Source of the DNA: an uncultured Desulfovibrionaceae bacterium
GTDB lineage: Bacteria > Bacillota > Dethiobacteria > DTU022 > UBA8154
Length of the DNA: 64,000 bases
Assembly (NCBI GenBank): GCA_964567295.1
Contig: CAZMLU010000001.1
Coordinates: forward strand, 8,606-72,605
Direction: 5' to 3'
This document shows, piece by piece, positions 14,971 to 30,511 of this stretch; within the stretch, counting starts at the first letter, position 1, and the number at the start of each line of letters is the position of its first letter. Below the pieces are notes generated by a model. That model made no database searches. It worked only from the letters and a program-made list of their open reading frames with translations, and had not been told where the DNA came from. The position numbers and the translations under genes were made by a program.

Positions 14971-15018
14971 TATTATAAACACCGGCGCTTAAACTGTCAA
15001 TTGAATTTCCGCAAATTT

Positions 15019-15040: not shown

Positions 15041-15121
15041 ACGTAACATAACCCGCAATTTTTGCGTCTTAATATATATGGAAAGAAAAAATAGCAGGAC
15101 TATAAAGGAGGATTACTAACT

Positions 15122-15733
15122 ATGAAAATGAAGTATTGGCTCTTTGGAATTATCATTCTCGTGCTTGCCGTAGCTTCAGTGACCATTGCCACACAGAATG
15201 CCAGTGAGAAGGGGGATCCGGCTCAAGAAGAGGTGGCCCATGAAGAAGGGGAAGAAGAAAATGGAAACGATGATAATATGGGCAGGGAGAACGGAGAGGT
15301 AGAAGAAAGCAAGGAAATTGAAAAGCATAGCGCAGAGGGACTGCTGACCGGGCAGATCGACAGCCACTCGGTAGAAATCGAAATTGACGGCCAGCCCCTG
15401 GCTTTTGCCCTGAGTGATGAACTGCGGGAAAAGGAGTTTGCCAGCGGAAAAATCAGCTTCCGGTATTATGTGGATGAAAACGGACGTTCGGTTATCACCC
15501 AGGCTGACTTCCAGGAGCCTCGGGAAGGCGAAGTAGATACCGCGGAGGTGACTTTTATCGGCCTGGCCGACAGCCATACGGCAGAAGTGGAGATGAACGG
15601 AGAAGCCCGGGCTTTTGGGCTGGGTGAAAATATTTCCTTTACCGGCATCGACACAGGCGAAAGAATCATTATCTTTTACCAGAAAAATGAACAGGGCCGC
15701 CAGGAAATCATTAAGATAGAGAAGGTATTTTAG
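15122..15733 (+). CDS. Secreted or membrane-anchored acidic protein with two internal repeats; possibly metal-associated
   Basis: 203 aa; an N-terminal signal anchor, a Glu/Asp-rich linker, and two roughly 55-aa repeats (DSHSVEIEIDGQPLAFAL and DSHTAEVEMNGEARAFGL). Divergent from the arsR-ATPase pair, with an AAAGGAGG ribosome-binding site. Confidence 0.5.
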   Translation: MKMKYWLFGIIILVLAVASVTIATQNASEKGDPAQEEVAHEEGEEENGNDDNMGRENGEVEESKEIEKHSAEGLLTGQIDSHSVEIEIDGQPLAFALSDELREKEFASGKISFRYYVDENGRSVITQADFQEPREGEVDTAEVTFIGLADSHTAEVEMNGEARAFGLGENISFTGIDTGERIIIFYQKNEQGRQEIIKIEKVF

Positions 15734-15861
15734 CTCCGGCCGGAAAGGATTAATGGAACTTGAAGCAGAATTTATTAAATATATGCAAAAGGGAGCAAAA
15801 TAAGGTCAATTATTGGTCCGGGAAACACCTTTTCTTAAATTTTCTTTGAGGAGGGAGCAAT

Positions 15862-16311
15862 ATGTACTATATCTTCATTGTAAATGATTTTCCGGTAAAT
15901 GAGGAAAGATTAGCGGCAGAGGATATTGTTAACAAATTATTCGGGCTGGGATACTGGTTACATACCGAAAAAACACCATTTGTGGAAAATTATGCCCCGG
16001 GGGATAAAGCGGTTGTTTACGTAGCTGGAATAGGCAGAAGATATTTTACCGGCTCATTTGAAATCGCCGGTAGTATTGCAAAAAATGATCTTCAACCTAC
16101 CGATAAGTATGAAAAAGAACTATTCTCCTTTTTTACGCTTGCTTCTCCCATATCTAATGTTGAAAAATGGAAAGAGCCTGTATATATCGATGATTTAATT
16201 GGAGAACTAAGTTTTATCAACCATAAAGACGATTTGGTACTGCTCACTAAACAATCGGCCAAATTAATCTCCAAGGAAGATTATCAGCTAATCTTAGACA
16301 AAGCTAGATGA
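15862..16311 (+). CDS. Hypothetical PUA-like (EVE/ASCH-type) small protein; an AT-rich orphan
   Basis: 149-aa ORF with a GAGGAGGG ribosome-binding site. Its AT content is markedly higher than the neighbours', and it lies immediately upstream of a tRNA-Ser. The fold assignment is tentative. Confidence 0.35.
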   Translation: MYYIFIVNDFPVNEERLAAEDIVNKLFGLGYWLHTEKTPFVENYAPGDKAVVYVAGIGRRYFTGSFEIAGSIAKNDLQPTDKYEKELFSFFTLASPISNVEKWKEPVYIDDLIGELSFINHKDDLVLLTKQSAKLISKEDYQLILDKAR

Positions 16312-16348
16312 ATATTGCCCTTTTTATCAAAGAGCAATTCTTGAAAAA

Positions 16349-16440
16349 TGGCGGAGAGAGTGGGATTCGAACCCACGAGGCGCGCTAACGCCTACTCGAT
16401 TTCGAGTCGAGCGCCTTCAACCGGACTCGGCCATCTCTCC
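16349..16440 (-). tRNA. tRNA-Ser (anticodon CGA)
   Basis: Manual fold: GGAGAGA acceptor, anticodon loop CUCGAAA, long variable arm, GGTTCGAATCC T-loop, encoded CCA. Confidence 0.9.
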
Positions 16441-16473
16441 GCGTCCTGTCTCATATTTTATGACACAATTCCC

Positions 16474-16502
16474 ATTATACAGCAGGCGAAATGGCTTGTA
16501 AA
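16474..16502 (-). promoter_or_regulatory. Sigma-A-type promoter for tRNA-Ser(CGA)
   Basis: On the minus strand: TTTACA, a 17-nt spacer, then TATAAT, about 30 nt upstream of the mature tRNA 5' end. Confidence 0.6.
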
Positions 16503-16562
16503 GCAGCTCAAGGCCCCAAAGATATACTTCGGGTTAATAAAGAAAGTTGGCTTCCCCTGACA

Positions 16563-16590
16563 TCAAAAAATGTTCTAACTTCGAAGAACA
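16563..16590 (-). terminator. Rho-independent terminator after the glutaredoxin-like selenoprotein gene
   Basis: On the minus strand: GUUCU-UCGAAGUU-AGAAC followed by AUUUUUUGA. Confidence 0.5.
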
Positions 16591-16602
16591 GGAGAGCAAA
16601 CT

Positions 16603-16941
16603 TTAAGCAGTTGTTATCTGCTGATGCTGGCAGTGAGGACAGGTCACCTTGATCTTGCCTTTCCCCCCGGGCACGCGCAACTTGGATGAGCAGTTTTCAC
16701 AAGAAATGGTAACCTTACTGAGCAGCTGGTCAAGCCTGGCCCGGTCAAACCCGGCCACTACTTCTTCCCCAATCAAAAAGGCTGGTACACCCTGCAGGCC
16801 CTTGCCGGTAAATTCTTGCATTGCTGCAGGATCCTTCTGAACATCTTTTTCTTCATAATCGATTCCTTTTTCGCGAAGATATCTCTTCGCCGTGTTGCAG
16901 TGGGATCAGGTTTGAGTTGTAAACATGATCACTTTTTCCAT
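16603..16941 (-). CDS. Glutaredoxin-like selenoprotein (UxxC active site) with a C-terminal zinc ribbon. The in-frame TGA at 16906..16908 is predicted to encode selenocysteine
   Basis: The ORF track shows only the C-terminal 72 aa. Extending the frame upstream gives MEKVIMFTTQT-[TGA]-SHCNTAKRYLREKGIDYEEKDVQKDPAAMQEF..., a complete Grx fold in which the TGA sits exactly where the first Cys of CPxC would be. The ATG at 16941 has an AGAGAGG ribosome-binding site, and there is a stem-loop 15 nt downstream of the UGA. Confidence 0.7.
16873..16890 (-). promoter_or_regulatory. Candidate bacterial SECIS hairpin
   Basis: GCGAAGA-GAUA-UCUUCGC, a 7-bp stem with a 4-nt loop, beginning 16 nt 3' of the in-frame UGA. 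Confidence 0.4.
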
Positions 16942-16979
16942 AATTAAAAACCTCTCTTTCTTTTTTTCATAATACTCTT

Positions 16980-17432
16980 TTACCTTCTTTCCTGGAAAAA
17001 CCCTCTTAATAGAAGCGCACAACTTTTTTCAAGGACCCCTTCAACCACTTCCAGGCGATGGTTGAGCCGTGGGTCATTTGTGATGTTGTAAAGGGAACAA
17101 ACGGCACCGGCCTTGGGGTCTCTGGCACCAAAAACCAGCCTGGGAACGCGAGCCTGGACCAGGGCTCCTGCACACATGGGACAGGGTTCCAGAGTTACAT
17201 AGAGGGTGGCTTCCAGCAGGCGCCAGCTGCCCAGCTTTTCGCCTCCCCGCCGCAGCACCAATATCTCGGCATGTGCGGTGGCATCTCTCAGTTCTTCACG
17301 GCGGTTGTGGTCTGCGACCAGAATTTCTCCTTCCTTAACCAACACGGCCCCTATAGGCACCTCGCCTTTCCGAAACGCCTCATTAGCCTGCTCCAGTGCT
17401 ATTTCCATATATTTTTCATCTTCTAATTTCAT
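16980..17432 (-). CDS. tadA: tRNA-specific adenosine deaminase
   Basis: 150 aa; HAEILVLRR ... TLEPCPMCAGAL, a CDA-fold zinc motif. Confidence 0.85.
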   Translation of the reverse strand: MKLEDEKYMEIALEQANEAFRKGEVPIGAVLVKEGEILVADHNRREELRDATAHAEILVLRRGGEKLGSWRLLEATLYVTLEPCPMCAGALVQARVPRLVFGARDPKAGAVCSLYNITNDPRLNHRLEVVEGVLEKSCALLLRGFFQERR

Positions 17433-17585
17433 CTGTAATCACTCACTCTATCAAAAACACTCCTGTACATCAATACTTTGCTCGCCTATCATTTCCAACA
17501 ACAGAGTAATAGTCTTATGGGAAAAAATTTGAAATAGCGCCCATCCTCGAGTCCTTTTTTTGCACAGATACATCTTGCTACTCAG

Positions 17586-18170
17586 TTAATTGTTCCATAA
17601 CTCGGGGAAAATATAAACAGATAATAAATAGACCAGAGCAATAAAATTGGCATTGCCGAACAAGACGGCAATAAAAACAGGCCAAAACTTAACCCTCCCC
17701 AGCCCCAGGGCAATCATTAAGATATCCTGGGGCAGGGGAGCGATGGAAGTGTAAATATAGGCGAATAAAGGCACCTTCCAGGGGTTTCTTTTGTTTATCC
17801 AAATGGAAAATATTTTTAAGCGTTTGTTCGTAAATTCGTCCAGAGCATAATGTCCTTTATATCCCAGGAAAAAAAAGACTGTATCCCCAATAGCACAGGC
17901 AGGAGCTGCTAAAAACACGAGGTAAAAAACATTAAATTCACCGCTACTGGCCAGGGTTATAAGAGATATATAATAAGGCAAAGATGTAAATCCGGAGACA
18001 CCTATTAAAGCAGTCAGAAAAATAACAAGATATCCCGTTTCTACCCCTATAAGCTCAACCAGTTCCCTCGGTGAAGCAAAAAACAGAAAACCGATCCAGA
18101 TTAAGACGAATAACAAAAGGATTATAAACCCCTTATGTTTTTTTTTAAAAAATTTCCGTGTTTTCACCAA
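17586..18170 (-). CDS. Small polytopic membrane protein (DedA/VTT-like?); an AT-rich gene
   Basis: 194 aa with a basic N-terminus followed by 4 to 5 transmembrane segments. Its AT content is much higher than the flanks. The family assignment is uncertain. Confidence 0.4.
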   Translation of the reverse strand: MVKTRKFFKKKHKGFIILLLFVLIWIGFLFFASPRELVELIGVETGYLVIFLTALIGVSGFTSLPYYISLITLASSGEFNVFYLVFLAAPACAIGDTVFFFLGYKGHYALDEFTNKRLKIFSIWINKRNPWKVPLFAYIYTSIAPLPQDILMIALGLGRVKFWPVFIAVLFGNANFIALVYLLSVYIFPELWNN

Positions 18171-18222
18171 GCATTTCTCCCCAGAGGGAATATGGAGGAA
18201 ACCATAAATAATATGGTAGTTT

Positions 18223-18262
18223 GCAAAAGAGGGCGGGGTATTTAAGACCCCGCCCTCTTTTG
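18223..18262 (-). terminator. Strong bidirectional rho-independent terminator downstream of the tRNA cluster
   Basis: AAGAGGGCGGGGU-auuuaaga-ACCCCGCCCUCUU, a 12 to 13-bp GC-rich stem flanked by an A-run and a U-run. Confidence 0.75.
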
Positions 18263-18272
18263 CGCTTGTAAG

Positions 18273-18349
<77 letters not shown>

Positions 18350-18355
18350 ATGGCA

Positions 18356-18450
18356 TGGCGGAGAGAGAGGGATTCGAACCCTCGAAGCGGGCTTTAACCC
18401 GCTTAATCGCTTAGCAGGCGACCGCCTTCGACCAACTCGGCCATCTCTCC
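18356..18450 (-). tRNA. tRNA-Ser (anticodon GCU)
   Basis: Manual fold: anticodon loop CUGCUAA, long variable arm, GGAGAGA acceptor, CCA. Confidence 0.9.
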
Positions 18451-18465
18451 GCGTTTTTCGCGCTC

Positions 18466-18553
18466 TGGCGGAGGGGGTGGGATTCGAACCCACGGCTCTT
18501 ACGAGTCACCGGTTTTCAAGACCGGCTCCTTAAACCACTCGGACACCCCTCCC
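18466..18553 (-). tRNA. tRNA-Ser (anticodon UGA)
   Basis: Manual fold: anticodon loop CUUGAAA, long variable arm, GGGAGGG acceptor, CCA. Confidence 0.9.
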
Positions 18554-18565
18554 CTTGCGTTTTTT

Positions 18566-18594
18566 AGTATAACATACCCTAAAATTATAGTCAA
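18566..18594 (-). promoter_or_regulatory. Sigma-A-type promoter for the tRNA-Ser/Ser/Arg cluster
   Basis: On the minus strand: TTGACT, a 17-nt spacer, then TATACT, 11 nt before the tRNA-Ser(UGA) 5' end. Confidence 0.6.
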
Positions 18595-18721
18595 TAAGCG
18601 CTGCTGCCCCAAAAAGCCGGACCCCAACACCCCAATTTTTAAGGCAGTATAGCAAGACAGGCCGCTAAGCTATAAAGACCTTGTCACGGTAACCGGCCAA
18701 GCAAACGCTCCGTGATCTCAC

Positions 18722-20608
18722 CTATTGCTCCGCCTGGCTGAGCTGAGCCAACCCCAGCCTTTTCAGGGTTTCAGCCGTGGGAATACCGTTATCGTCCCAT
18801 CCCCGCAGCTGATAGTAGCGTGAAAGCATGTTCAACAGTTCGGCATGCGAAATAGATGATCCAGAGCTGGCGCCACGCGGAAGAGGCTCGCTCACCCTTC
18901 CGGGCAGTGTATCGTGGGCACGGTTGAAGCCTTCCCGAACATTGAACATGCGGCAAAGATTGTAAACCCTTTCCCCCAGGAGCATGAGCTTTGTTACCGA
19001 ATAATCATTGCCGGTGATTATTCGCAACAGCTCGGAAAGAAAAGCGGGGGTTACGGGTCCTGAATCCCAAGCGATAAAGCGGCAGATGATCAGGGTATCC
19101 TGAAAAGAACGCAGGTCCTGGGCGATAACTTCAAATTCAGGCTTCAGTTTTTTGGACATGCGCGAAATAGCCCTGAACTTTTTGTCCAGGCCGATGGAAG
19201 GCATAAGTCTTCCCGATTCGATAGTTTCATCGTGCATACCCTGCATGTGACAGGCCCCGCGGTTGGAAGTAGCATAGGAAAGGCCCTGCCCTACCTTGGC
19301 CCTGGGCATATGCACCGCAAAAGCCTGGTTTTTAACCTGCATGGCAAAGTAGGGGGAAGCACGGCCAACCATACGGGAGGCCTCCTCCAGGCCTTCGGCG
19401 AGGAGGGCCCCCAGGCCCTTTTTATAGGCGATATCCTTTATCAAGCCCAGCAGTGCCTCTTCGTTACCCCAGGTCAACTCCAAACCACCGGTATCTTCCT
19501 TGCTCAGGTATCCCTTCTCGTAGCATTCCATGGCCCAGGCAATGGACAGGCCGGTATTAATCCCGTCCAATCCGTAGTGGTTGCAGAGTTCGTGGGCCTT
19601 GGCTACAGCGGAAAGGTTGAAAATGCCCACGCAGCTGCCAAGGGCTCCGATGGTTTCAAATTCGGGACCACCATAGGCAGTATTGTTGGTCTTATAAGGA
19701 CCATCCTTCACCTGCACGACCCTTTTACAGGCCACGGGACAACCCGGGCAGGCCTCTCGACCGATGAGAATCGTGTCCGTCATGGTCTCTCCCATGAGCG
19801 GGTTGATATTCTCGGAATAACCTTCCCGAAAATTGTAGGCGGGATACATACCCATTTCGTTATAAGGACCCACACCGCTGGCTGTGCCATAATTCCTTAA
19901 GACCTGGCAGCCGGCATCTTCCCTGGTATGCTGGTTAAGTTCCTTAATACGGTCCCGCAGGCGTTCAGGCTCGGCTACTTCCGTATCCTGGCCGCCAAAG
20001 GTTACCACCGCTTTGAGATTTTTGGAGCCCAGCACAGCTCCTGCTCCACTGCGTCCGGAAACACGATTGAAGCCGTTTATCACACAGGCATAGCGGACCA
20101 GGTTTTCTCCGGCCGGACCGATAGTAGCTACCTGCAGCCTTTTATTAGCATAATCGAAACGGATCTTTTCAGTTGTCTCCGCCACTCCCAAACCCCACAG
20201 GTGGGAAGCATCTTTCAGGGCAATTTCTTCATCGGTAGCCATCAAATAGAGGGGTCTTGAGGCTTTGCCCTGCACGATAATCAGATCAAACCCGGCTCTT
20301 TTCAGCATACGCCCAAAAGCCCCGCCGGCGTTTGCATCGCCCCAACCCCCGGTAAGAGGGGACTTGAAGCAGAGAAGATGGCGGCTCGAGCCGGGCAGAT
20401 TGGTGTTGTCGAAAGGCCCGGTGCTAAAGATCAGGCGGTTCTCAGGGCCAAGAGGATCTGCCCCGGCCGGGACTTCCTCATAAAGAAAATGGGCCCCCAG
20501 GCCGCGGCCTCCCACGTACTTCTGAACCAGTTCTTCTGCCAGCACTTCTGTCTTGACCTCTTCCCTGGTTAAATCCACCCTTAATATTTTTCCGCTGTAA
20601 CCGTACAC
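18722..20608 (-). CDS. aor: Tungsten-containing aldehyde:ferredoxin oxidoreductase (AOR family)
   Basis: 628 aa; the N-terminus MYGYSGKILRVDL (GTG start) and AOR family length and motifs (CPGCPVACK, the [4Fe-4S] and pterin-binding regions). Confidence 0.85.
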   Translation of the reverse strand: MYGYSGKILRVDLTREEVKTEVLAEELVQKYVGGRGLGAHFLYEEVPAGADPLGPENRLIFSTGPFDNTNLPGSSRHLLCFKSPLTGGWGDANAGGAFGRMLKRAGFDLIIVQGKASRPLYLMATDEEIALKDASHLWGLGVAETTEKIRFDYANKRLQVATIGPAGENLVRYACVINGFNRVSGRSGAGAVLGSKNLKAVVTFGGQDTEVAEPERLRDRIKELNQHTREDAGCQVLRNYGTASGVGPYNEMGMYPAYNFREGYSENINPLMGETMTDTILIGREACPGCPVACKRVVQVKDGPYKTNNTAYGGPEFETIGALGSCVGIFNLSAVAKAHELCNHYGLDGINTGLSIAWAMECYEKGYLSKEDTGGLELTWGNEEALLGLIKDIAYKKGLGALLAEGLEEASRMVGRASPYFAMQVKNQAFAVHMPRAKVGQGLSYATSNRGACHMQGMHDETIESGRLMPSIGLDKKFRAISRMSKKLKPEFEVIAQDLRSFQDTLIICRFIAWDSGPVTPAFLSELLRIITGNDYSVTKLMLLGERVYNLCRMFNVREGFNRAHDTLPGRVSEPLPRGASSGSSISHAELLNMLSRYYQLRGWDDNGIPTAETLKRLGLAQLSQAEQ

Positions 20609-20735: not shown

Positions 20736-22124
20736 TTAATCCAGCACGCGGGCAAAAGAATATTTTTCTAAAAATTTTTGTATACCTTCTTTCAGGTAAA
20801 CTTCTTCTGCTTCATCGGCAGGGCAGCGTAAATTTTCCCAACTCTCCCATAAGGGTTGTAGCAGTTTTTCTTCACCCAAGCCCCTTTTTTGCAGACCTTT
20901 TTCTGCTATCTGCAGCACCTCATAGCAGATATCCTTGATTCTCTCACCGGCCATATGTGCCTGCATGCCGTTGCGGAGCGCATCCTCCCGCCCTTCTTCC
21001 AGGTCTTCCCATTCAAAGGTATCCACAAAAGACTGGGCTGGAAGCAGCTTCTCCATAATGCCCAGGGTAAAGGCCGCCGGAACCAGCAGTCTGCCTGGAG
21101 GCTGCTGGCAGTTGACACGGTTCTCCAGGGTATAGTAGCCGGAAAGCCGCGCATCGTTCCAGCAGAAGGTGTAGTGCAGGTCAAAATCTTCATCTCTGGG
21201 GACAAGGGGGACCCTCTCCCCATTTTCCGTTTCACCGGTCGCCTTTTTGGCTGCTGCCCAGTACTCGGCAAAAGAGGAGTAGTGCCCGATCCCGTAGTAT
21301 TCTTTATCCCGCTTGACGTAGACCGGCTTAAAACCGGAAATAAAGATCATATAATCTGTAAGGGAGCCAAAACGGCGCGGAGTCATACCGACACGGGGAT
21401 TGCCGGGTAGCCAGCGGTGCCATAAATTTTGGCTAAGGGCCTTATACTCGCGGTCTACCGTTCCGCCCCAGATATTAGAATTAGCATTCAGGGCAACCTC
21501 CATCCCCGAAAGGGCGTTAAAGACATTGACTGCCGCTGCCGTTTCTTCCGTAGTGACATCCACGTGGACCTGGTTGGTGCAGGTCACGGTAAAATAATTT
21601 ACCCTGCGGTTTCCGAAAGATTTATTCCAAAAAAGGTTGCGCTGCTTTTTGGTCATCAAGTCGTCGCTGGGAGAAGTAAGGGGCTGCATACCATAACAGA
21701 GGAAATAAACTCCTCCGCCTTGCTGCTCCCGGAAATTTTCCAACAGCTCCGCCAGAAATTTAATTTTTTCTTGCAAATACCAGAGATTTTCTTTGTAGCC
21801 CAGGGATAGCTCCAGCTTGCAGTAACCGGTTTCGGTGCCGGCCAGGTCTTCTGCAGGTTCTCCATTCAGCGTAGCACCGATGGGCTGCTTATAATAAGGA
21901 TCGGTAATTACATCCCACCCTTCTGTCCCCAGGAATTCCCATAATTTTTGCATGGTTTCCCGGGAGACTGCCTCGCCTTTGTGGTTAACCACCGGGAATT
22001 TTAGCTCCACGCCCACATGCCTTTTTCCTCCTTCCCTTTCTTCGTCCTTCTCCTCGAAGCTCTCCTCCCATTGTTCTATAACTTCATCCAGCTGATCATT
22101 GTCCTTATGGTTTAACATAATCAC
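20736..22124 (-). CDS. Carboxylate-amine ligase of the glutamate-cysteine ligase family 2 (GCS2/EgtA/YbdK-like)
   Basis: 462 aa; an HVGVELKF... N-terminal motif and an NQVHVDV motif typical of GCS2-type gamma-glutamyl ligases. The assignment is moderate. Confidence 0.5.
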   Translation of the reverse strand: MIMLNHKDNDQLDEVIEQWEESFEEKDEEREGGKRHVGVELKFPVVNHKGEAVSRETMQKLWEFLGTEGWDVITDPYYKQPIGATLNGEPAEDLAGTETGYCKLELSLGYKENLWYLQEKIKFLAELLENFREQQGGGVYFLCYGMQPLTSPSDDLMTKKQRNLFWNKSFGNRRVNYFTVTCTNQVHVDVTTEETAAAVNVFNALSGMEVALNANSNIWGGTVDREYKALSQNLWHRWLPGNPRVGMTPRRFGSLTDYMIFISGFKPVYVKRDKEYYGIGHYSSFAEYWAAAKKATGETENGERVPLVPRDEDFDLHYTFCWNDARLSGYYTLENRVNCQQPPGRLLVPAAFTLGIMEKLLPAQSFVDTFEWEDLEEGREDALRNGMQAHMAGERIKDICYEVLQIAEKGLQKRGLGEEKLLQPLWESWENLRCPADEAEEVYLKEGIQKFLEKYSFARVLD

Positions 22125-22332: not shown

Positions 22333-23586
22333 TTACATGATCTGTCCGCTACCTTCTACTACGTACTTATAAGAGGTAAGATCTCGCAGGCCAACCGGCC
22401 CGCGGGCGTGTAGTTTATCGGTAGAAAGGCCTACTTCGGCACCCATTCCCAACTGTTCTCCGTCATTGAACATGGTGGAAGCATTCACCAGCACAACTCC
22501 TGAGTCTACTTTACGGGTAAATTTTTTTGCGGCGTTGTAATCATCGGTAACGATTACATCTGTATGGTGGGAGCCGTAGGTGTTGATGTGTTCAACGGCT
22601 TCCTCCAGTGAGGCTACCACTTTTACCGAAAAGATGAGATCCAGATATTCTGTGCTCCAGTCCTCTTCGGTGGCATCCTCCATCCATCCCAAGATTTCCT
22701 TGGCCTTGGAGCACCCCTTAAGCGTTACACCGTCCTTTACCAACGCTTCGGCTACAGGGGGTAAGAGGCGTCTTGCTGCTTTTTCGTGGATCAACAGGGT
22801 CTCTGCCGCATTGCATACCTCTGGCATGAGGAGCTTGGAGTTGTGAGTTACTTTAACGGCAACCCCCTCCGGGGCGCTTTGATCCAGGTAGACATGGCAG
22901 ATGCCATTATAATGCTTAATGATAGGCACCGTGCCATTTTTCTTGACCAGGTCTATAAGACCCACCCCACCGCGGGGTATAAGGAGATCCAGGTATTCAT
23001 CCAGGGTAATAAGCGTATTGACTGCCTCGCGATCGGAGCTGCTGATTACTTGCAGCGCTTCGGTGGGAAGGCCACTTTGTTTTAGTGTTTTTTCCCAGAG
23101 TTCGCCCATTATACTAATGCTGCGCAGCGCTTCGGACCCACCTCTCATTATAGCTGCGTTACCGGCTTTGAGACAAAGAGCGCCCACGTTGGGAACTACA
23201 TGAGGACGCGCTTCAAAGATCATGCCCACTACTCCGATAGGGACCCGCATTTTTTTGACCTCCAGACCGCCGGGACGCCTGTTGCAATAATCGGTGTCTC
23301 CCACCGGATCAGGAAGCGCGGCGATACCTTCCAGGGCGGCTGCACGCGATTCAATCTTAGCCCGGTCGAATTTGAGGCGATTGAGAAGGTTGGGGTTTAT
23401 GCCTTTTTCCTGGGCTTCCTTGCAATCATCCTGGTTTGCCTGGGCTACCTCGCTGATATTCTCCCGCAGCTTGTGGGCCATAAGAAGCAGTGCCTCGTTT
23501 TTGGGGGCCGTCTCTGTAGTAGCCAGGATCCTGGAAGCTTCCTTCGCCTTTCGGGCCTTTTCTCTGACAATATCGGCAATTTTCAC
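22333..23586 (-). CDS. proA: Gamma-glutamyl phosphate reductase (glutamate-5-semialdehyde dehydrogenase)
   Basis: 417 aa; full-length ProA-like ALDH fold (VPIGVVGMIFEARPHV..., the catalytic Cys region). There is no proB nearby. Confidence 0.85.
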   Translation of the reverse strand: MKIADIVREKARKAKEASRILATTETAPKNEALLLMAHKLRENISEVAQANQDDCKEAQEKGINPNLLNRLKFDRAKIESRAAALEGIAALPDPVGDTDYCNRRPGGLEVKKMRVPIGVVGMIFEARPHVVPNVGALCLKAGNAAIMRGGSEALRSISIMGELWEKTLKQSGLPTEALQVISSSDREAVNTLITLDEYLDLLIPRGGVGLIDLVKKNGTVPIIKHYNGICHVYLDQSAPEGVAVKVTHNSKLLMPEVCNAAETLLIHEKAARRLLPPVAEALVKDGVTLKGCSKAKEILGWMEDATEEDWSTEYLDLIFSVKVVASLEEAVEHINTYGSHHTDVIVTDDYNAAKKFTRKVDSGVVLVNASTMFNDGEQLGMGAEVGLSTDKLHARGPVGLRDLTSYKYVVEGSGQIM

Positions 23587-23626: not shown

Positions 23627-24277
23627 CTATTCAATACCAAGCTCGTTTTTTACCACTTTTACTGCTTCCAGTACATTTTCTCCATAAAGATCAGCCTTGA
23701 TTTCTTCGGCAAACTCTTCTGTTACCGGTGCTCCGCCCACGATGATCTTAAGCTTACCATCTTTTCTAAACCCTGCACCGTCTATGGCTTCCACTGTCTG
23801 CGTCATGGCCGGCATGGTGCTGGTAAGCAGCGCGGACATACCTACTATATTGGGTTTGTATTTTTCAATAGCATCTACAAAGGCACCTGGAGCAACATTG
23901 ATACCGATATCGATCACTTCAAAACCGTTTGCGGTAAACATCATCTCTACCAGGCTTTTACCGATATCGTGGATATCTCCTTCCACTGTCCCCAGAACCA
24001 TCTTGCCCTTCATCCTCACTTCTTTCTGCTGGGATTCCAACAAGGGGCGCAGTATTTCCAGGGCCGAGTGCATGGTGCGAGCAGAAAGCATTACTTCGGG
24101 AATAAACATTTCATCTGCCGCAAAGCTCTTGCTTACCACTTCCATGCCCGACATGAGTCCTTCTTCCAGAACTACCTCCGGCTCCATGCCTTCATCCAAC
24201 GCTTTCTGTACCAGGGATTTTACCCCATCGATATCTCCTTCAATTATAGTCTTAGATAGTTCTTCCATCATTGACAT
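23627..24277 (-). CDS. Corrinoid (B12-binding) protein of a methyltransferase system
   Basis: A B12-binding cap plus a Rossmann fold with the DxHxxG motif (GDIHDIGKS). Start set at the internal Met (MSMMEEL) to avoid overlap with the upstream gene. Confidence 0.8.
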   Translation of the reverse strand: MSMMEELSKTIIEGDIDGVKSLVQKALDEGMEPEVVLEEGLMSGMEVVSKSFAADEMFIPEVMLSARTMHSALEILRPLLESQQKEVRMKGKMVLGTVEGDIHDIGKSLVEMMFTANGFEVIDIGINVAPGAFVDAIEKYKPNIVGMSALLTSTMPAMTQTVEAIDGAGFRKDGKLKIIVGGAPVTEEFAEEIKADLYGENVLEAVKVVKNELGIE

Positions 24278-24305
24278 AAATAAAAATCTCCTTTCCTGTT
24301 GAGTA

Positions 24306-25118
24306 TCATATAACCAGAACGCCTTTGCGGAAAGCCCGTAGATATTTTCCACAGTACGGGTCTTGTCCTGTTAAGGCCCGGGTGGCAAAGACAGAACTCA
24401 TTACCGCCTTATCTAAGGGATTAAGAAGGGCAGAATCCAGGCCCACTCCCATAGCCAGAACCAGGTATGTCCTATTGAGAAGAGCACGCTGGGGCAGGCC
24501 GTGAGAAATGTTGGTCAAACCGATTGTAGTCTTAACACCCAGTTTATCTCTGAATTGTTGCAGTGACTCCAAGGTTACCTCGCCGCTTTTGTCATCAACA
24601 CCCAGGGGAAAAGCCAACGGGTCAAAGTAAAAACTCTCCTTCGAGAAACCCATTTTCTCAGCCCGTTCTAATATTTCAGTGGCCACCTGGAGCCGGCCTT
24701 CCACATCCTTGGGTATACCTTTATCGGTAGCAGGGAGGGCAACAACAGAGCAATCGTACTGGCGAGCCAGTTCCAGGAAGGGTTCCAATCTCCCTTCTTC
24801 AGCGCTGATCGAATTAAGCATGGCTCCCTGACCGAACGCTTTCAAGCCTGACTCTAAAACTTCTATACTCGTAGTATCAATTGTCAAAGGTTTCTGTGTT
24901 ACTTCTTTGATCAACTCTACCGCCCATTTCATATCTTCTACTTCCTTTTCAGCTTTTCCCCTGCCGGTAGCCACATTGACATCTATATAATCTGCACCGG
25001 CTTCGTCCTGTTGCCGGGCTAAATCCTGAATAAAATCGCTATCGTGGTTGATAACAGCCTCCCGCACCGATTTGCGTGTGGCGTTAATAAGTTCTCCGAT
25101 AATAAGCATAAAAACCAC
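24306..25118 (-). CDS. Methyl-corrinoid:tetrahydrofolate methyltransferase (pterin-binding MtrH/MtgA/AcsE-like, the MT2 component)
   Basis: 270 aa; a pterin-binding TIM barrel (IGELINATRKS ... DYIDVNV ... LTIDTT). Confidence 0.75.
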   Translation of the reverse strand: MVFMLIIGELINATRKSVREAVINHDSDFIQDLARQQDEAGADYIDVNVATGRGKAEKEVEDMKWAVELIKEVTQKPLTIDTTSIEVLESGLKAFGQGAMLNSISAEEGRLEPFLELARQYDCSVVALPATDKGIPKDVEGRLQVATEILERAEKMGFSKESFYFDPLAFPLGVDDKSGEVTLESLQQFRDKLGVKTTIGLTNISHGLPQRALLNRTYLVLAMGVGLDSALLNPLDKAVMSSVFATRALTGQDPYCGKYLRAFRKGVLVI

Positions 25119-25151
25119 TCCTTATTAATTGATCTTCCTGGTCTGGCGGTC

Positions 25152-26588
25152 TTACTTGATCTCCTTGAAATCTGCCTGGACTTTTTCCCGTGGCCCCTGC
25201 TGTAAGGGGTCTGCCTGATGATTCTTTAACAATTCTTTGGCAATCCTCCTGGCACGCTCAGCGGCATCCAGGGAACCATCTTTTTCCCAAAGTTTTCTGG
25301 ACTGCCTATCCGAAACTTTCGTATAGTAAAATTCGTTACGAAAATGTTTGATCGTGTGCTGCTCCGAGAGAAAGTTTCCGCCCGGGCCAACACGACGGAG
25401 CACTTCTTCGGCAAGAGTATCTTCATTAACCTCTATTCCCTTTACGGCTCTGAGGCAGATACCGATAATCTCGTTATCGATCACCATCTGCTCATAAGAA
25501 GCAGTTGTGCAGAACTCCAGGATCCCCGCAGCGTCATGAATATAGTTGGCACCGGCCAGAGAGGCTATCATTGAAGTAGCAGCTTTTTCATATCCCGCCT
25601 GGCAGTCAGGCAATTTACTATCAGACATACCTGCTGTGGCATAAAAAGGAATACCGTAATGTTGAGCCATCTGTGCCAAACCGGAGTTGATCAACCCCGA
25701 CTCAATACTTCCGGCCAGGTAAGAACCTGATTTCATATCCATGTTGGTAGCCACGGAACCATAAAGAGTTGGGGTGCCTGGGTTTACCAGTTGGGCCAGG
25801 ATAACCCCGGTCAAGGTTTCTATATTATTGGTAGCGATAGTGCCGGCCAGTGTACAAGGGCCGGTAGCACCGGCCAACGGCTCAGCAGGTGTCGCCAGGG
25901 GCAAGCCCTGGCGTGCCACTTCAATGAGAAAATCGGTATACTTGTTATCCAACAACATTGGACTCATAACGCAGGTTATGAAAGAAACAAAAGGTCTTTC
26001 CCTTAATTTGGCAGGCCCGCCGGCCAGCATCTCAGACATTTGTATCACTCGCTTAAGGCCTTCTAAGGTATAGGTTCCACCCATCACATGCTTGGAGGTG
26101 TTGGAAAAAGAGTGGAAAAAGCGGTTAACATCCACTTCCTGCAACTGCAGGTCCGTAGGGTATACGTTGATCACAAAAAAGGATACATTGTCAAGGGCAT
26201 CGGTTATCAGGGCAAAGTTTTTAACGTCTTCCAGGGTTGTGGGTCGCCGCTGGCCAGTCTCCAGGTCCAGGCAATTCAGCACTGTCCCACCGGTTCCCGA
26301 GTAGGTACGAGAGCCTTCCAGGGTCAGATCATGCTCTTCTTTGCGGCCGCAGAGGACCACCTTAGAAGGTGCAGAGTTTACCGCTTCTTCCAGCATAGAC
26401 CGTGGGATCTTCACAATCTGGGTTTCGTGGTCAACACCTGCCCCTTTTTGTTCAAAAATCTCCAGCGCCTGATTGTTGGGAATCTTGACCCCTACTTCTT
26501 CCATAAGACGCACAGTCATTTCATGAATGGAGTTAATATCTTTGTCGGTGAGAGGTTTGAAGCGCCCACCCTGTTCACCATGTATCAT
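25152..26588 (-). CDS. MttB-superfamily quaternary-amine:corrinoid methyltransferase (non-pyrrolysine member)
   Basis: 478 aa, uninterrupted (no in-frame TAG). The N-terminal LTDKDINSIHEMTVRLMEEVGV pattern and the length are typical of the MttB/MtgB family. Confidence 0.85.
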   Translation of the reverse strand: MIHGEQGGRFKPLTDKDINSIHEMTVRLMEEVGVKIPNNQALEIFEQKGAGVDHETQIVKIPRSMLEEAVNSAPSKVVLCGRKEEHDLTLEGSRTYSGTGGTVLNCLDLETGQRRPTTLEDVKNFALITDALDNVSFFVINVYPTDLQLQEVDVNRFFHSFSNTSKHVMGGTYTLEGLKRVIQMSEMLAGGPAKLRERPFVSFITCVMSPMLLDNKYTDFLIEVARQGLPLATPAEPLAGATGPCTLAGTIATNNIETLTGVILAQLVNPGTPTLYGSVATNMDMKSGSYLAGSIESGLINSGLAQMAQHYGIPFYATAGMSDSKLPDCQAGYEKAATSMIASLAGANYIHDAAGILEFCTTASYEQMVIDNEIIGICLRAVKGIEVNEDTLAEEVLRRVGPGGNFLSEQHTIKHFRNEFYYTKVSDRQSRKLWEKDGSLDAAERARRIAKELLKNHQADPLQQGPREKVQADFKEIK

Positions 26589-26621
26589 TTAACAGCCTCC
26601 TAATCGATTGTTTTATAACTA

Positions 26622-27866
26622 CTACTTGGTTACACGAATGATCGACACCAGCCCGTGTCCCAACCCCATACCCCGTTGCAAGCTCATCTCCAAGCTGCGC
26701 AGGGCCAGTCCCAGCTGAGTCTCGATGAGATCGGCGCGTACATCACCGTAAAGTTCACGGCTGGCATCCACTGTAACTTTCATGGCCTTGTACCCTTTCT
26801 TTAAGGCCGGGAAAGAAGTTTCCGGCTCCCTGGGGTGAGCGGCGCCCCGATTGTCATAATGTTCCAGCAGATCGATTGTATAATTTATGAGGGAGTTCCA
26901 GGCTCCCGCCAGGTTGGAAAGTATCCTGTTCTGCCAGGCAAAGCCTTCCTTGGGGCGGTAGTCGACCAGCAGGTCGGGGAAATAGGTACGCAGGCCGGGC
27001 TCAAAAAGAGAGGAGACCATCAGACGGAGAAGCTGGGGGTTATCATTGTAGGTTCCCGTCTCCATATGGCGCCCCACAAAAATGGAACGGTCAAAAAAGC
27101 GCAAAATCTCCAGGTCAACTCCAGTTTTTTGGGAAGCTCTATCCACAATCTCTGAAACCTCTTGTGGAGTCATGAGCCTCATTGGAAAAGAGGAAACCTC
27201 TATTTCGTCTCGCTGCTCCTCGTCGTAGAGGTAATTGATTTTGTAATCAATATAGGGGCGCTGATGAATATCTTGAGTCCACAAGTTTTGCCACTCGTAA
27301 GAGTAACGACCGACCCAGTCCCCGAGAATAATGCTGCCATCATGGCCATGCCTGGCGATATCCATCAACAGCTTTTCTATCTCCTGGTCTGTACAGTGCG
27401 AAAATGTCCCGTAGGAGGTAAAGTAGAGATCATAGGGCGCTTCATTCTCCTCCAGGGGAAGCCCGTCGGAAAAATCACCTTTGCAGAAGTTGACATGATC
27501 GTAATGCCCCAGGAGGTTTTCACCTTCTTTGAGCAGCTCAATGCTCAGATCCACTCCTTTATAATGCTCTAAAAGCTCTTCCGGTATAAGGCGGTTATCA
27601 TGTTCCGAGAGCCGGGACTTGGCCGGAAGAGTGCTAAGGAGCTGGTAACCGTCCCCGGTCCCACATCCCAGGTCATAAAAACGCAGCCCTTCTTTCTCCT
27701 TTTTCTTTTCGTTCACGATGGACTCCAGGTAAGGCCTCAAGAAAAAGCAGGTAATCATATCTTCCCAGACCACTCGAACATGATCATATTTTCCGCGCAG
27801 ACTTCGGACATGTTCACTGTATCGACCATGAGCAACCGCTTCTTGGTAAGCTTCATTAGCTTTCAT
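26622..27866 (-). CDS. Class I SAM-dependent methyltransferase, EgtD-like (histidine-specific Methyltransf_33-like), with a roughly 200-aa C-terminal extension
   Basis: 414 aa; motif I FYDLGCGTGDG, GVDLS, F.KGDF...LP and FTSYGTFSH ... HDGSIILGDWV. The last of these echoes the EgtD motifs (CGDF; FLGSTIGN; PGDSLLLGTD). Confidence 0.55.
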   Translation of the reverse strand: MKANEAYQEAVAHGRYSEHVRSLRGKYDHVRVVWEDMITCFFLRPYLESIVNEKKKEKEGLRFYDLGCGTGDGYQLLSTLPAKSRLSEHDNRLIPEELLEHYKGVDLSIELLKEGENLLGHYDHVNFCKGDFSDGLPLEENEAPYDLYFTSYGTFSHCTDQEIEKLLMDIARHGHDGSIILGDWVGRYSYEWQNLWTQDIHQRPYIDYKINYLYDEEQRDEIEVSSFPMRLMTPQEVSEIVDRASQKTGVDLEILRFFDRSIFVGRHMETGTYNDNPQLLRLMVSSLFEPGLRTYFPDLLVDYRPKEGFAWQNRILSNLAGAWNSLINYTIDLLEHYDNRGAAHPREPETSFPALKKGYKAMKVTVDASRELYGDVRADLIETQLGLALRSLEMSLQRGMGLGHGLVSIIRVTK

Positions 27867-27869
27867 TGT

Positions 27870-28565
27870 CTATTTATCCCCCCTTACCATAAGTTTTTCG
27901 GCAAGAGTAACTGCAGCGAATGCATCCGCTCCGTAAGCATCAGCTCCTATTTCTTGGGCAAATTGATCTGAAGTTGGTGCTCCGCCGATGATCACTTTTA
28001 CTTTATCCCGTAGATTCCTACTCTCCAGTTCTTTAATGGTCTTAGCCATTAAGGGCATCGTGGTATCCAGAAGAGCGGAAAGCCCTATAAGGCCGGCTTC
28101 TTCTTTTTCTACTTCATCTGCGATACGGCTGGCCGGAACATTAATACCCAGGTCAACTACAGCGAATCCGGCGCCTTTAAGCATAATAGAGACCAGGTTT
28201 TTGCCGATATCGTGAATATCTTTTTCCACAGTAGCCATGATCACTTTCCCCTTACCCTCTTTGCTTCCCTTTTTAACAAGGTGGGGCTCCATAATCTCCA
28301 TGGCTGCGCCTACAGCTTCCGCTGAAGAAAGCATATCGGGAATGAAGTATTCTCCTGTTTCATATTTTTCTCCTACCAATTCCATGCCGCGGCTTAATCC
28401 CTCAGCGAGGATCTTCTCTACATCCATGCCTTGCTCAAGGGCCTCTTCGACAAGCTCGGTAACACCCGGCTGCCCCTCAAACCCTTCATCTATACCTTCA
28501 TCATCCTTATCCCTGCGTCCTTGCAGAACATTCGAAACAATTTTTTCAATATAGTCTTCTGACAT
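27870..28565 (-). CDS. Corrinoid (B12-binding) protein of a methyltransferase system
   Basis: 231 aa; DxHxxG (EKDIHDIGKN) and a B12-binding Rossmann domain. Confidence 0.85.
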   Translation of the reverse strand: MSEDYIEKIVSNVLQGRRDKDDEGIDEGFEGQPGVTELVEEALEQGMDVEKILAEGLSRGMELVGEKYETGEYFIPDMLSSAEAVGAAMEIMEPHLVKKGSKEGKGKVIMATVEKDIHDIGKNLVSIMLKGAGFAVVDLGINVPASRIADEVEKEEAGLIGLSALLDTTMPLMAKTIKELESRNLRDKVKVIIGGAPTSDQFAQEIGADAYGADAFAAVTLAEKLMVRGDK

Positions 28566-28686
28566 AACCCTTCCTCCTTAAGCGAATATACGTTCGTTTT
28601 TTGGTGATATTCCTCCTACGGAAACCTTAAGCTAAGCCACCGGATCTTCACAAGTGCTGCGGCAAAGCATATGAAGGCACCATTCT

Positions 28687-30225
28687 TCACTCCGCATAGG
28701 GATTAAGACGAGCCAAAAGGCCTGGAACACGGTCAAATATCTCTTTGCAGATCTCCTGCGATAGGTGATTTGGTGGATTGGAAAGCAGCTTTTGGACCTG
28801 TGCGTGAGCTTCCAACAGTGTATCGTCCTGGTCCTCCAAGTCGCCCTGGAAGGGATAATTGGGGAATATCCCACCCCGGCGCAGGGCGCGACGGGCATAA
28901 CGGGCGTAAAGCCTGTTTGGGCTGTTCATTACCTTGTTGATAATATCTTTCTGCTCTTCCATTGTTTCGGTAGAGACCTCGGGTTCACGGCATAAGAACT
29001 TGGCCATGCCAATATGGTGATTGTCCAACAGGGCCTGCTCCACAGAAAAAGTCATTGTTTTCTCCAATAGGCCAAAAGAATAATGGATCAAGCCCGGGGC
29101 AGCCAGCGGCACGGTTGAGTGAGTAAGCATTTTTTCCGCTGCGGCCTGCATTCCTGGCACCTTGGAGTCACCTACTCCTGCAGTGGAATAACAGGGTATC
29201 CCATAATGCTTGGCCATTTGAGCGCAACAAGCATTATAGTGAAAGAGCTCGGGCACACCGTACATATCATGCAGATTGTCCATGCGCGCCCGAACGGGCA
29301 CTGCACCGTAAATAACCGGCGCTCCCGGTGCGGCTAACTGGTTAATAATAACTCCCGTAAGCACCTCTGCATTTACCTGGGCCACCATCCCTGCCTCATC
29401 TATAGGAGCTGTAGAACCTCCCTGGGGTGAGGTAGATATGATTACGGGAAGTCCCATGCGGGATACCGCCATAAGCTTCTCGGCAGTCTCATCCACTACC
29501 TGTAAAGGGCTTTTGATCACCGAGGTGATAAAAGAAACCAGGGGATTTTCCTTTAGCGCTTCTCGACCACCCGCGATAATCTCTGCCATCTTAACCACAT
29601 TATCCAGCTGGCGAAAATCGGTAAGGCCTCCCATAACATGCTTTGACGTGTTGTTGAGCGAAGCAAAAAACTTGTTAACGTCCTTGTTTTCTTCGGTAAT
29701 ATCCTTGTCCTGAACATTTACATTGCGCAGGAAAAAATCCAGGTTCTCCAGGTTTTCAGCCAGATGGGCTGAAACACAGAGATCGGCCACAGTCCCCCTT
29801 CTGCGAGTTATGGCGGGAAACACTCTTTTGTTTTGGGGATTATCCTGGGAGACAAACGTTTCCGGATGAACTTCCAACCAGATATTAGTTTCCGAACCTG
29901 AACCAAAATGGACCCTCATCTCTTCTGTATCCAACTGCAAGCTGTGTTCGGGATCTCTGGCACCCAGGGTTATCTTATGGGGAACAGTTTCCAGCACCTG
30001 CTCTACTACGCGCGGGGGAATGCTTACCCACCAGGCTTCATGCTCACCTTCCCTGGTGGGGGTAGAACTCGCCCCCGCCTTTTCCAGCATCCCCACAGCC
30101 TCCCTGTTGTAAAACAGAATTCCGGGCTTTTCCAACAGTGCCAGGGAAGTACGATGCACCAGTTCCACTTGCTCCGCAGTTAATCGATTGTACGGATTAC
30201 GTACTACTACTCCTTTTCTACTCAA
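28687..30225 (-). CDS. MttB-superfamily quaternary-amine:corrinoid methyltransferase (non-pyrrolysine member), second paralogue
   Basis: 512 aa, uninterrupted. LTAEQVELVHRTSLALLEKPGI aligns with the paralogue's N-terminus. The apparent start is TTG, with no adjacent SD; the nearest AGGAGG is 36 nt upstream. Confidence 0.8.
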   Translation of the reverse strand: MSRKGVVVRNPYNRLTAEQVELVHRTSLALLEKPGILFYNREAVGMLEKAGASSTPTREGEHEAWWVSIPPRVVEQVLETVPHKITLGARDPEHSLQLDTEEMRVHFGSGSETNIWLEVHPETFVSQDNPQNKRVFPAITRRRGTVADLCVSAHLAENLENLDFFLRNVNVQDKDITEENKDVNKFFASLNNTSKHVMGGLTDFRQLDNVVKMAEIIAGGREALKENPLVSFITSVIKSPLQVVDETAEKLMAVSRMGLPVIISTSPQGGSTAPIDEAGMVAQVNAEVLTGVIINQLAAPGAPVIYGAVPVRARMDNLHDMYGVPELFHYNACCAQMAKHYGIPCYSTAGVGDSKVPGMQAAAEKMLTHSTVPLAAPGLIHYSFGLLEKTMTFSVEQALLDNHHIGMAKFLCREPEVSTETMEEQKDIINKVMNSPNRLYARYARRALRRGGIFPNYPFQGDLEDQDDTLLEAHAQVQKLLSNPPNHLSQEICKEIFDRVPGLLARLNPYAE

Positions 30226-30511
30226 TATTACGCCTGGCCAATATTTAAACCAGGACTAAACACCTCCTGTAGTTTTTTACGGCAGTGCCGTTTGTTTCCA
30301 GGCAGGATATCAAAGGACCCCGGTTTTAGCTAAAACAAAAGACAGCTTCTGAACCTTCTGCCCGGACCTTTGCATAGGTCGCTGCCAAATTTTTTTCATA
30401 GTAAAAGAAATATCACTATTCTTATTTCGACGCTAAATTGATTATTCCTGCATAATTTTCAAAAAAGGCATAAAGGGGCCAGAAGATTGCCCGCTCAAGT
30501 CTTGATAGGGT

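Follow-up and report, generated by a model that had tools for sequence, protein, structure and literature searches.

A conserved gene cluster that joins two unusual MttB-superfamily proteins to an uncharacterised family of SAM-dependent methyltransferases and may encode a hybrid N-methylation pathway

The closest described relatives of the system reported here are operons built around methyltransferases of the MttB family. In the MtgB/MtgC/MtgA operons of Desulfitobacterium hafniense and 'Candidatus Formimonas warabiya', an MttB-family methyltransferase 1 (MT1) is encoded together with a DxHxxG corrinoid protein and a Pterin_bind methyltransferase 2 (MT2), and the two-MT1 clusters of the latter organism combine two MT1/corrinoid protein pairs with one MT2 and have betaine-type transporters nearby. 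The phosphocholine system of Eubacterium limosum (MthB/MthC/MthA/MthK) provides a precedent for a substrate-conditioning enzyme embedded in such a cluster, in this case a kinase that recycles its activating group (PMC12155760). In Ruegeria pomeroyi, a split methionine synthase and MtgBCD(E) form separate pterin, corrinoid and MttB modules, through which methyl groups flow in both directions and which are linked to the methionine/S-adenosylmethionine (SAM) cycle (PMC12478193). The pyrrolysine-containing branch of the family is represented by Pyl-MttB/MttC of Methanosarcina barkeri (PDB 7XCL). All three components of the MtgB operons, and the composition of the two-MT1 clusters, recur in an operon of six tightly spaced open reading frames (ORFs) on the minus strand at positions 23627-30225 of a 64-kb stretch of DNA from an uncultured bacterium (contig CAZMLU010000001.1; hereafter 'the window'), as established by ORF listing and translation.

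This operon departs from the MtgB systems in that it includes an obligate SAM-dependent methyltransferase (hereafter MTase), in that both of its MttB proteins carry Tyr in place of Arg312 of MtgB, and in that its orthologous clusters use a MetH-type activation protein rather than RamA. Where the Mth system has a kinase as its accessory enzyme, the accessory enzyme here is a methyltransferase that consumes SAM. With their MetH activation domain, MetK and AhcY, orthologous clusters resemble the methionine/SAM link of Ruegeria; however, no homocysteine-binding module is present in the listed loci, whereas Ruegeria uses RamA plus DUF1638 and has no class I methyltransferase. In Bacillota, the operon represents a conserved gene cluster that is widespread among salt-adapted anaerobes. 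We assign a probability of roughly 40% to the reading that this cluster encodes an anabolic, SAM-sparing pathway, a hybrid of methyl-tetrahydrofolate (methyl-THF)/corrinoid and SAM chemistry, that N-methylates an amino-acid-type osmolyte.

The initial annotation had described a six-gene operon with two MttB paralogues, two corrinoid proteins and one MT2, and this gene content is confirmed. The first gene (28687..30225) encodes MttB-A (512 residues, TTG start codon), a divergent protein of the MttB superfamily that lacks pyrrolysine. It is followed by the gene for CoP1 (27870..28565; 231 residues), the corrinoid partner of MttB-A and the MTase, and by that for the MTase itself (26622..27866; 414 residues), a class I SAM-dependent methyltransferase from an uncharacterised family of about 415 residues, in which a Rossmann core precedes a C-terminal helical domain. 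The second half of the operon encodes MttB-B (25152..26588; 478 residues), a non-pyrrolysine MttB paralogue, then MT2 (24306..25118, with a likely start at 25109), a methyl-THF:corrinoid methyltransferase, and finally the second corrinoid protein, CoP2 (23627..24352, with a likely ATG start at 24277 that would yield 216 residues). Successive gaps measure 121, 3, 33, about 33-42 and about 28 nt, and another 40 nt separate the last gene from proA. Both MttB proteins are matched by the Pfam MTTB model (PF06253, cutoff 25 bits) over most of their length (MttB-A, residues 10-432, 215 bits; MttB-B, residues 9-473, 387 bits), and both align along their full length with the MtgB and MttB structures. 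As befits members of this superfamily, they are accompanied by corrinoid partners, each composed of B12-binding_2 and B12-binding domains and carrying the DxHxxG motif, which in CoP2 was seen in translation. MT2 is a Pterin_bind protein that scores 91.6 bits with PF00809 and 296.8 bits with NF005719 (cutoff 259).

The nearest public loci, which are numbered here from L001, are 91% identical and belong to metagenome-assembled genomes labelled 'Syntrophomonadaceae bacterium' from Cock Soda Lake sediment. In L001, one of this group, MT2 is called with 267 residues and CoP2 with 216 (213 in L002), and one public protein (P0121) is 100% identical to MttB-A of the window. The Cock Soda Lake Syntrophomonadaceae are Dethiobacter-related anaerobes that use the Wood-Ljungdahl pathway (PMC6146748).

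Relatives of the MTase, which form 156 representative clusters at E <= 1e-30, are encoded in 531 of the scanned species genomes. When the window proteins were compared with six-frame ORFs of 88 loci, the MTase was immediately preceded by MttB-A and a corrinoid protein in 65 of the 67 loci that had enough sequence. In one of the two exceptions the genes are the same and the gap is larger, and the other has MttB-A directly upstream and no corrinoid protein. The presence of a SAM-dependent methyltransferase inside a corrinoid operon, which had been flagged as anomalous, thus reflects true integration. MttB-B is present in 63 of the 88 loci, many of which are truncated. MttB-A, MttB-B and the MTase thus form the core of the cluster, and one or two corrinoid proteins and an MT2 usually accompany them. 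The cluster spans Bacillota, Desulfobacterota, Nitrospirota, Chloroflexota, Actinomycetota and other lineages, and since the same gene order recurs across phyla, the arrangement is not due to chance. The order seen most often, which occurs in Desulfobacterota, Nitrospirota and Chloroflexota, is a MetH-activation-like protein, MttB-B, MT2, MttB-A, corrinoid protein, MTase and an AsnB-like protein, sometimes headed by a MarR regulator and a betaine-type ATP-binding cassette (ABC) importer. Actinomycetota and some others have ProA, a GCS2-like protein, MttB-B, MttB-A, corrinoid protein and MTase. Clusters of the Dethiobacter type have the window order followed by the activation-like protein, and in most soda-lake Syntrophomonadaceae the MTase and MttB-B genes are separated by those for an OpuA-type importer and a CBS protein. 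The commonness of this architecture had been proposed as grounds for rejecting the anomaly if a known substrate were already assigned to it; the architecture is indeed common and conserved, and the literature that we found assigns it no known substrate. Our literature searches likewise retrieved no description of the cluster or of corrinoid-dependent betaine synthesis; an HgcA-MttB docking paper and a preprint on the mlp cluster proved unrelated.

Among the partner genes, betaine-type ABC importer genes occur in 33 loci, a CBS-pair protein in 18 and MarR in 17, with MetK (four loci), AhcY (two) and MscS and TrkHA (two) as occasional companions. The surroundings, in which importers, MarR, MetK, AhcY, MscS, TrkHA, CBS and Usp proteins appear, point to osmoadaptation and SAM turnover. 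For the substrate-binding proteins that belong to the transporters, the only matches are to OsmF-type models and stay below cutoff, so that no ligand could be assigned. In Desulfoferrobacter suflitae (L050, 1178-2581 and 14511-20217), the cluster runs into metK and ahcY and is flanked by BON-MscS and trkH-trkA genes, a setting that appears to be an osmoadaptation island.

In Pfam, the MTase matches only generic class I methyltransferase models, of which Methyltransf_25 alone exceeds its cutoff (32 bits), and it has no NCBIfam match. The hallmarks of class I are present, namely a Rossmann-like fold, a GxGxG motif I and an acidic residue that ends beta-2. An alignment of 44 diverse homologues has 50 invariant columns in all, which include motif I in the form DxGCG, the acidic residue at the end of beta-2 and the family-specific motifs KYDNVRxxWED and DRSxFVGRH. 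The closest characterised sequence relatives are the phosphoethanolamine N-methyltransferases of Plasmodium, at a marginal E value of 0.007, and in this weak match the invariant H157 of the MTase aligns with the His of the AILHL motif, which we take to be catalytic in those enzymes. The MTase is about 150 residues longer than the GSMT/SDMT and phosphoethanolamine N-methyltransferases, and it is linked to AsnB and corrinoid enzymes whereas those families are not. Judged by its sequence, the MTase is a genuine specialised SAM enzyme that lies outside any described family, and it is plausibly an amine N-methyltransferase.

A resemblance of the MTase motifs to EgtD had been noted in the initial annotation, which considered that the enzyme might help to make or modify a hercynine- or ergothioneine-like compound, or that an EgtD-like fold had been co-opted to bind a betaine. 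The Pfam scan found no Methyltransf_33 (PF10017) match, and EgtD structures were matched neither by the single MTase sequence nor by the family profile and were absent from the top-ranking fold matches. No gene for EgtB, EgtC or EgtE is present in any locus whose genes were listed. SAM dependence is the sole likeness between the two. Because the SAM-binding motifs are invariant, a non-catalytic pseudo-enzyme is unlikely, and with it the betaine-binding accessory role. A loose connection to ergothioneine is offered by the GCS2-family ligase encoded downstream, since EgtA belongs to the same family; with the EgtA model TIGR03444, the L005 protein scores 27.8 bits against a cutoff of 371. We regard a histidine trimethylase of the EgtD kind, or an EgtD-fold betaine binder, as scarcely tenable. 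The general notion that the MTase helps to make or modify a betaine-like compound nonetheless fits the data best, without the hercynine and ergothioneine link.

A different view of the MTase comes from loci that lack corrinoid partners. An exhaustive profile search recovered two proteins (P0268, 934 residues; P0270, 901 residues) in which asparagine synthase B is fused to the N-terminus of an MTase. Their AsnB portions score 566 and 567 bits, respectively, with NF006949 (cutoff 499). P0268 begins with the catalytic MCG, shares 37% identity with the window MTase across 412 residues and, as read by eye, keeps the signature motifs of the family. The genes next to these fusions encode an ABC ATPase and a fused permease/OpuAC protein, and their vicinity lacks both MttB and corrinoid protein. 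A metagenome scan repeatedly recovered the arrangement AsnB, MTase, ABC ATPase, permease/OpuAC, again without MttB or corrinoid protein. Within the MttB clusters, the gene that follows the MTase encodes a bona fide AsnB or, far more often, a paralogue whose N-terminal Cys is replaced by Ser or Ala (MSGF...). This Cys-less paralogue is present in L050 (13003-14526) and in 29 other loci (for example L041, L044 and L053-L088), scores 364 bits, below the AsnB cutoff of 499, and is probably an ammonia- or amine-dependent ligase. The MTase family thus shares a pathway with an asparagine-synthase-type amide ligase and is tied to betaine-type transport and stress genes. One further fusion, of Usp to the MTase (P0295; L095, 8001-9794), has no MttB, AsnB or Opu genes nearby, and its context was uninformative, as were the contexts of distant MTase relatives of 350-390 residues.

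Since AsnB-MTase loci occur without MttB or corrinoid protein, the MTase needs no corrinoid partner, and this removes both an MT2-like role and a role in methylating the corrinoid with SAM. The latter had been proposed as an analogy to the MetH activation domain, and it would amount to reductive reactivation, or to a SAM-to-cobalt methyl feed, that replaces RamA or that domain. Several features speak for the proposal. As had been stated for the operon, no RamA-type activator is encoded there, and the whole 64-kb window encodes neither a RamA/RACo protein nor a MetH activation domain; moreover, only 3 nt separate CoP1 from the MTase, and clusters of the Dethiobacter type pair CoP1 with the MTase and CoP2 with the MetH-activation-like protein. 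Against this stand, besides the AsnB-linked proteins and the lone Usp fusion, a stand-alone Met_synt_B12-like protein (the MetH activation domain) in 32 orthologous loci, and the coupling of the MTase directly to MttB-A in clusters that have no corrinoid protein. We consider SAM-dependent methylation of the corrinoid by the MTase to be highly improbable.

RamA was encountered only in L089, on a Desulfomonilaceae contig, where a second complete system of MT2, corrinoid protein, two MttB proteins, DUF1638 and RamA (RACo) follows immediately after the MTase/AsnB cluster (13113-20455); the two adjacent systems use different reactivation partners. The same additional MT2, corrinoid protein and two MttB genes are found in L054 and L057, where we withdrew a tentative reading of the extra MttB ORFs as one split pyrrolysine gene, as they are two full-length paralogues separated by a TAA codon.

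The corrinoid proteins differ in their distribution. CoP1 conserves D116-x-H118-x-x-G121 across 80 orthologues and has a conserved insertion (QGR....DEG......G, residues 9-33) at the N-terminus of its cap domain that has no counterpart in CoP2. It is the sole corrinoid protein in most orthologous clusters, whereas CoP2 is limited to the Bacillota-type version.

With the trimethylamine-type model TIGR02369 (cutoff 525 bits), MttB-B scores 499.7 and MttB-A 266.3. Compared with MtgB and Pyl-MttB, MttB-A yields 144 and 128 bits and MttB-B 287 and 265 bits, which makes MttB-B the closer paralogue of both solved MttB-family structures. MttB-A is a conserved protein in its own right, with 120 residues that are at least 95% conserved across 74 orthologues. 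The absence of an in-frame amber codon from both genes, as first reported, is borne out: the ORFs are uninterrupted, and the pyrrolysine position is an ATG codon (Met321) in MttB-B and Val in MttB-A. Across 59 MttB-B orthologues this position is M, T, A or L. MttB-B retains the Gly-Thr loop of Pyl-MttB and its Tyr at position 329, yet it has an invariant His in place of Tyr364, and Met, Thr or Ala where Pyl-MttB has the UAG-encoded residue.

The Rfam model PYLIS_3 matches MttB-B at 25529..25628 on the minus strand (58.8 bits; gathering threshold 38), and the match starts exactly at the Met codon that stands in the place of UAG. All seven orthologous loci scanned (L003, L005-L008, L010 and L050) match as well, at 49-66 bits. 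Most likely, the match reflects conserved coding sequence rather than recoding. Two explanations suggest themselves: PYLIS_3 may for the most part model conserved coding sequence, or MttB-B may have arisen recently from a Pyl-type gene.

Both paralogues had been expected to demethylate quaternary amines such as glycine, proline or carnitine betaine, an assignment that the active-site residues do not support. In MtgB, Arg312 binds the acid group of the substrate and is conserved in MtgB, MtcB, MtpB, MthB and MtyB, and MtgB loses its activity when either R312L or H348E is introduced (PMC13080624). Of these five, we aligned the window proteins to MtgB alone, and the Arg of MtcB, MtpB, MtyB and MthB is taken from the same source. 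The position of R312 is occupied by Tyr in both proteins (Y346 in MttB-A, Y316 in MttB-B), each at least 95% conserved among orthologues, as it is in Pyl-MttB; MthB of the phosphocholine system, in contrast, keeps the acid-binding Arg. The residues Tyr97, His348 and Phe356 of MtgB correspond to Gly, Asp/Glu352 and Cys in MttB-B. In MttB-A, His348 and Phe356 correspond to Tyr382 and Thr, and the Tyr97 region is an unalignable insertion. On these residues, neither protein is an orthologue of the known betaine demethylases, and the pattern at R312 and H348 excludes MtgB-type binding without identifying the substrate. H351 and D/E352 are invariant in MttB-B; however, we dropped the idea that this pair is a diagnostic general-base dyad because the IHD motif also occurs in neighbouring RamA-linked MttB proteins. 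Other MttB paralogues of the same genomes share both this motif and a Tyr or Trp at the R312 position, so that neither feature is specific to the cluster. The conserved C334, C345 and H381 of MttB-A prompted us to consider a zinc-dependent homocysteine methylase that would complete a split MetH, an idea for which we found no supporting precedent.

Taken together, these observations are compatible with a scheme in which we infer the direction of methyl flow, the substrate and its role as an osmolyte. MT2 would load the methyl group of methyl-THF, which is plentiful in Wood-Ljungdahl anaerobes, onto Co(I) of the corrinoid protein, and the two MttB proteins would transfer it from methyl-Co(III) to an amine, the reverse of the known MttB direction. 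The SAM-dependent MTase would carry out the remaining methylation, which is practically irreversible and would pull the pool toward the fully methylated product. In other lineages, the MetH-type activation protein would use SAM to repair oxidised Co(II), a function that for the window operon would be encoded elsewhere. MetK and AhcY would recycle SAM, and the importer would scavenge the same solute or a precursor. Asparagine is the leading candidate for the methyl acceptor because AsnB is fused or adjacent to the MTase elsewhere; glycine or proline derivatives are also possible, and the scheme implies no particular order of the three methylations. By our own estimate from standard formation energies, the conversion of methanol and NH4+ to methylammonium and water releases about 22 kJ/mol (~ -22 kJ/mol), and methyl-tetrahydromethanopterin (methyl-H4MPT) lies energetically near the level of methanol, so that amine methylation from a methyl-pterin is thermodynamically allowed and should run downhill. 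Pterin and corrinoid modules can work in both directions, as was shown genetically for MtgD/MtgC (PMC12478193). A related soda-lake Syntrophomonadaceae organism relies on a salt-out strategy and has no complete recognisable pathway for the synthesis of glycine betaine or ectoine (PMC6295475).

The more specific proposal, that MttB-family enzymes run in reverse as methyl-corrinoid-dependent N-methylases and, together with the new MTase, carry methyl groups from methyl-THF to an undescribed solute, perhaps a betaine derived from asparagine or a different amino acid, is one that we hold only tentatively. Several facts weigh against the anabolic reading. We know of no MttB protein that has been shown to methylate an amine. 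The placement of a binding-protein-dependent importer and MarR beside MT1, corrinoid protein and MT2 is also a classical catabolic layout, and in some Desulfobacterota the adjoining RamA-equipped second MttB system gives the region the look of a methylotrophy island. Beside the operon in the window there is no AsnB, MetK or AhcY. Accessory genes vary by lineage (AsnB, Cys-less AsnB-like, ProA with GCS2-like, or none), and no single acceptor is thus indicated. Our literature search found no report of a microbial asparagine betaine. Lastly, all characterised MttB-family enzymes are catabolic and transfer methyl groups from the substrate to Co(I) (PMC13080624, PMC12155760).

Some of the same facts lend substance to a catabolic reading, in which the cell takes up a methylated amine or betaine, MttB-A and MttB-B remove its methyl groups one step at a time, and one or both corrinoid proteins and MT2 hand these on to THF for entry into the Wood-Ljungdahl pathway. 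The role of the MTase, and of AsnB where it is present, would then be that of a substrate-conditioning accessory of the MthK kind or merely that of a co-regulated gene of osmolyte synthesis. That all known MttB members act as catabolic MT1 enzymes supports this reading (PMC13080624, PMC12155760), as do the frequency of betaine-type importers and MarR among the neighbours, the second MttB system with DUF1638 and RamA in L089, the presence of the Wood-Ljungdahl pathway in the host lineage (PMC6146748) and the MthK precedent itself. The combination of two MT1 proteins and two corrinoid proteins with one MT2, which the initial annotation took to mean two substrates or a sequential double demethylation, has been interpreted in the same two ways for other clusters, and specifically as a route from betaine via dimethylglycine to sarcosine (PMC9768040). 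Methylation by SAM followed by corrinoid-dependent demethylation would, however, be a futile cycle. The reading also leaves no evident role for an MTase that accompanies MttB-A in almost all of the examined loci and whose start adjoins the gene before it or lies inside that gene, has no need of MetK and AhcY as neighbours, and must contend with the loss from both MttB proteins of the Arg312 common to the five characterised betaine demethylases and with an MTase family that also functions with AsnB and a transporter where there is no MttB. A catabolic operon gains nothing from methylating with SAM and then demethylating, whereas an anabolic one uses every conserved part, and on this basis we favour the anabolic hybrid pathway and consider catabolism its main rival, somewhat less likely but serious.

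A third arrangement would combine both directions. One MttB protein, probably MttB-B, would take methyl groups from an external betaine, a choline-like compound or a methylamine, a shared corrinoid protein would carry them, and the other MttB protein would methylate an acceptor made by the cell, with the SAM-dependent MTase completing the product and MT2 only balancing the pool against methyl-THF. Such a relay would account for the single corrinoid protein that serves two MttB proteins in most clusters, for the importer embedded in the operon and for the absence of a nearby MT2 from loci of the L003 type, from the Actinomycetota loci and from L005 and L090. Shared corrinoid proteins and bidirectional modules are also documented (PMC12478193). 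In opposition, AcsE or MetH, for example, could supply the MT2 function from another locus, and the relay, every step of which we infer, requires that two paralogues work in opposite directions. We judge it unlikely.

If the anabolic hybrid pathway is correct, the MttB superfamily, known for the demethylation of amines, would gain a biosynthetic direction from methyl-corrinoid to amine. Strict anaerobes of soda lakes and marine sediments, among them sulfate reducers, syntrophs, Dehalococcoidia and Nitrospirota, would have a route to a compatible solute that is far cheaper in ATP than three SAM-dependent methylations, which would explain how energy-limited halophilic and marine anaerobes without known betaine or ectoine pathways maintain osmotic balance. 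If the cluster is catabolic instead, it would still define two new MttB subfamilies, whose substrate is probably not of the carboxylate type, and a new MTase family tied to AsnB and betaine transporters. Two cultured organisms, Dethiobacter alkaliphilus and Desulfoferrobacter suflitae, carry the cluster.

Downstream of the operon and on the same strand lie proA (22333..23586), which encodes glutamate-5-semialdehyde dehydrogenase (NF001221, 544 bits; cutoff 289), a gene for a GCS2-like carboxylate-amine ligase (20736..22124; PF04107, 34 bits) and a gene for aldehyde:ferredoxin oxidoreductase with AFOR_N and AFOR_C domains (18722..20608). In Bacillota, Actinomycetota and two other lineages, proA and the GCS2-like gene flank the MttB and MTase genes (L005, L058, L070, L073 and L084). 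In these clusters, which represent at least four lineages, the ligase is always paired with proA (in L005 the two occupy 4082-6828) and stands in the place of proB, which is also missing from the window ORFs that were scanned. Its similarity to plant-type glutamate-cysteine ligase is remote (E 2e-8), and its role may be to substitute for glutamate 5-kinase or to form a gamma-glutamyl amide. The aldehyde:ferredoxin oxidoreductase gene accompanies the cluster only in the closest Syntrophomonadaceae loci (L001, L002 and L009-L011).

Upstream, the operon is preceded by a 286-nt intergenic region (30226..30511) that presumably holds its promoter and leader. No sigma-70-like site was found on the operon strand within this region. 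At E <= 1, it contains no riboswitch or other Rfam family and the operon region contains no riboswitch or leader, and none reached its gathering threshold in the window or in the seven orthologous loci scanned. Terminator-like sites are no more frequent than in shuffled sequence.

The remaining content of the window is housekeeping in nature (serS, argS, glycogen genes, EF-G, ilv genes and DNA polymerase III). Three tRNA genes lie just downstream of the aldehyde:ferredoxin oxidoreductase gene (18276-18552, minus strand), a fourth lies about 2 kb beyond at 16352-16440 (minus strand), and the large signal recognition particle (SRP) RNA and another tRNA follow further on (9932-10306, minus strand); these tRNA and SRP RNA genes mark the end of the conserved block. 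On the other side of the operon and unrelated to it, a glycogen metabolism block (38962-50626, minus strand) encodes glycogen phosphorylase, glycogen synthase, branching enzyme and an ORF of 1144 residues that, from its sequence alone, resembles a fusion of alpha-amylase and 4-alpha-glucanotransferase.

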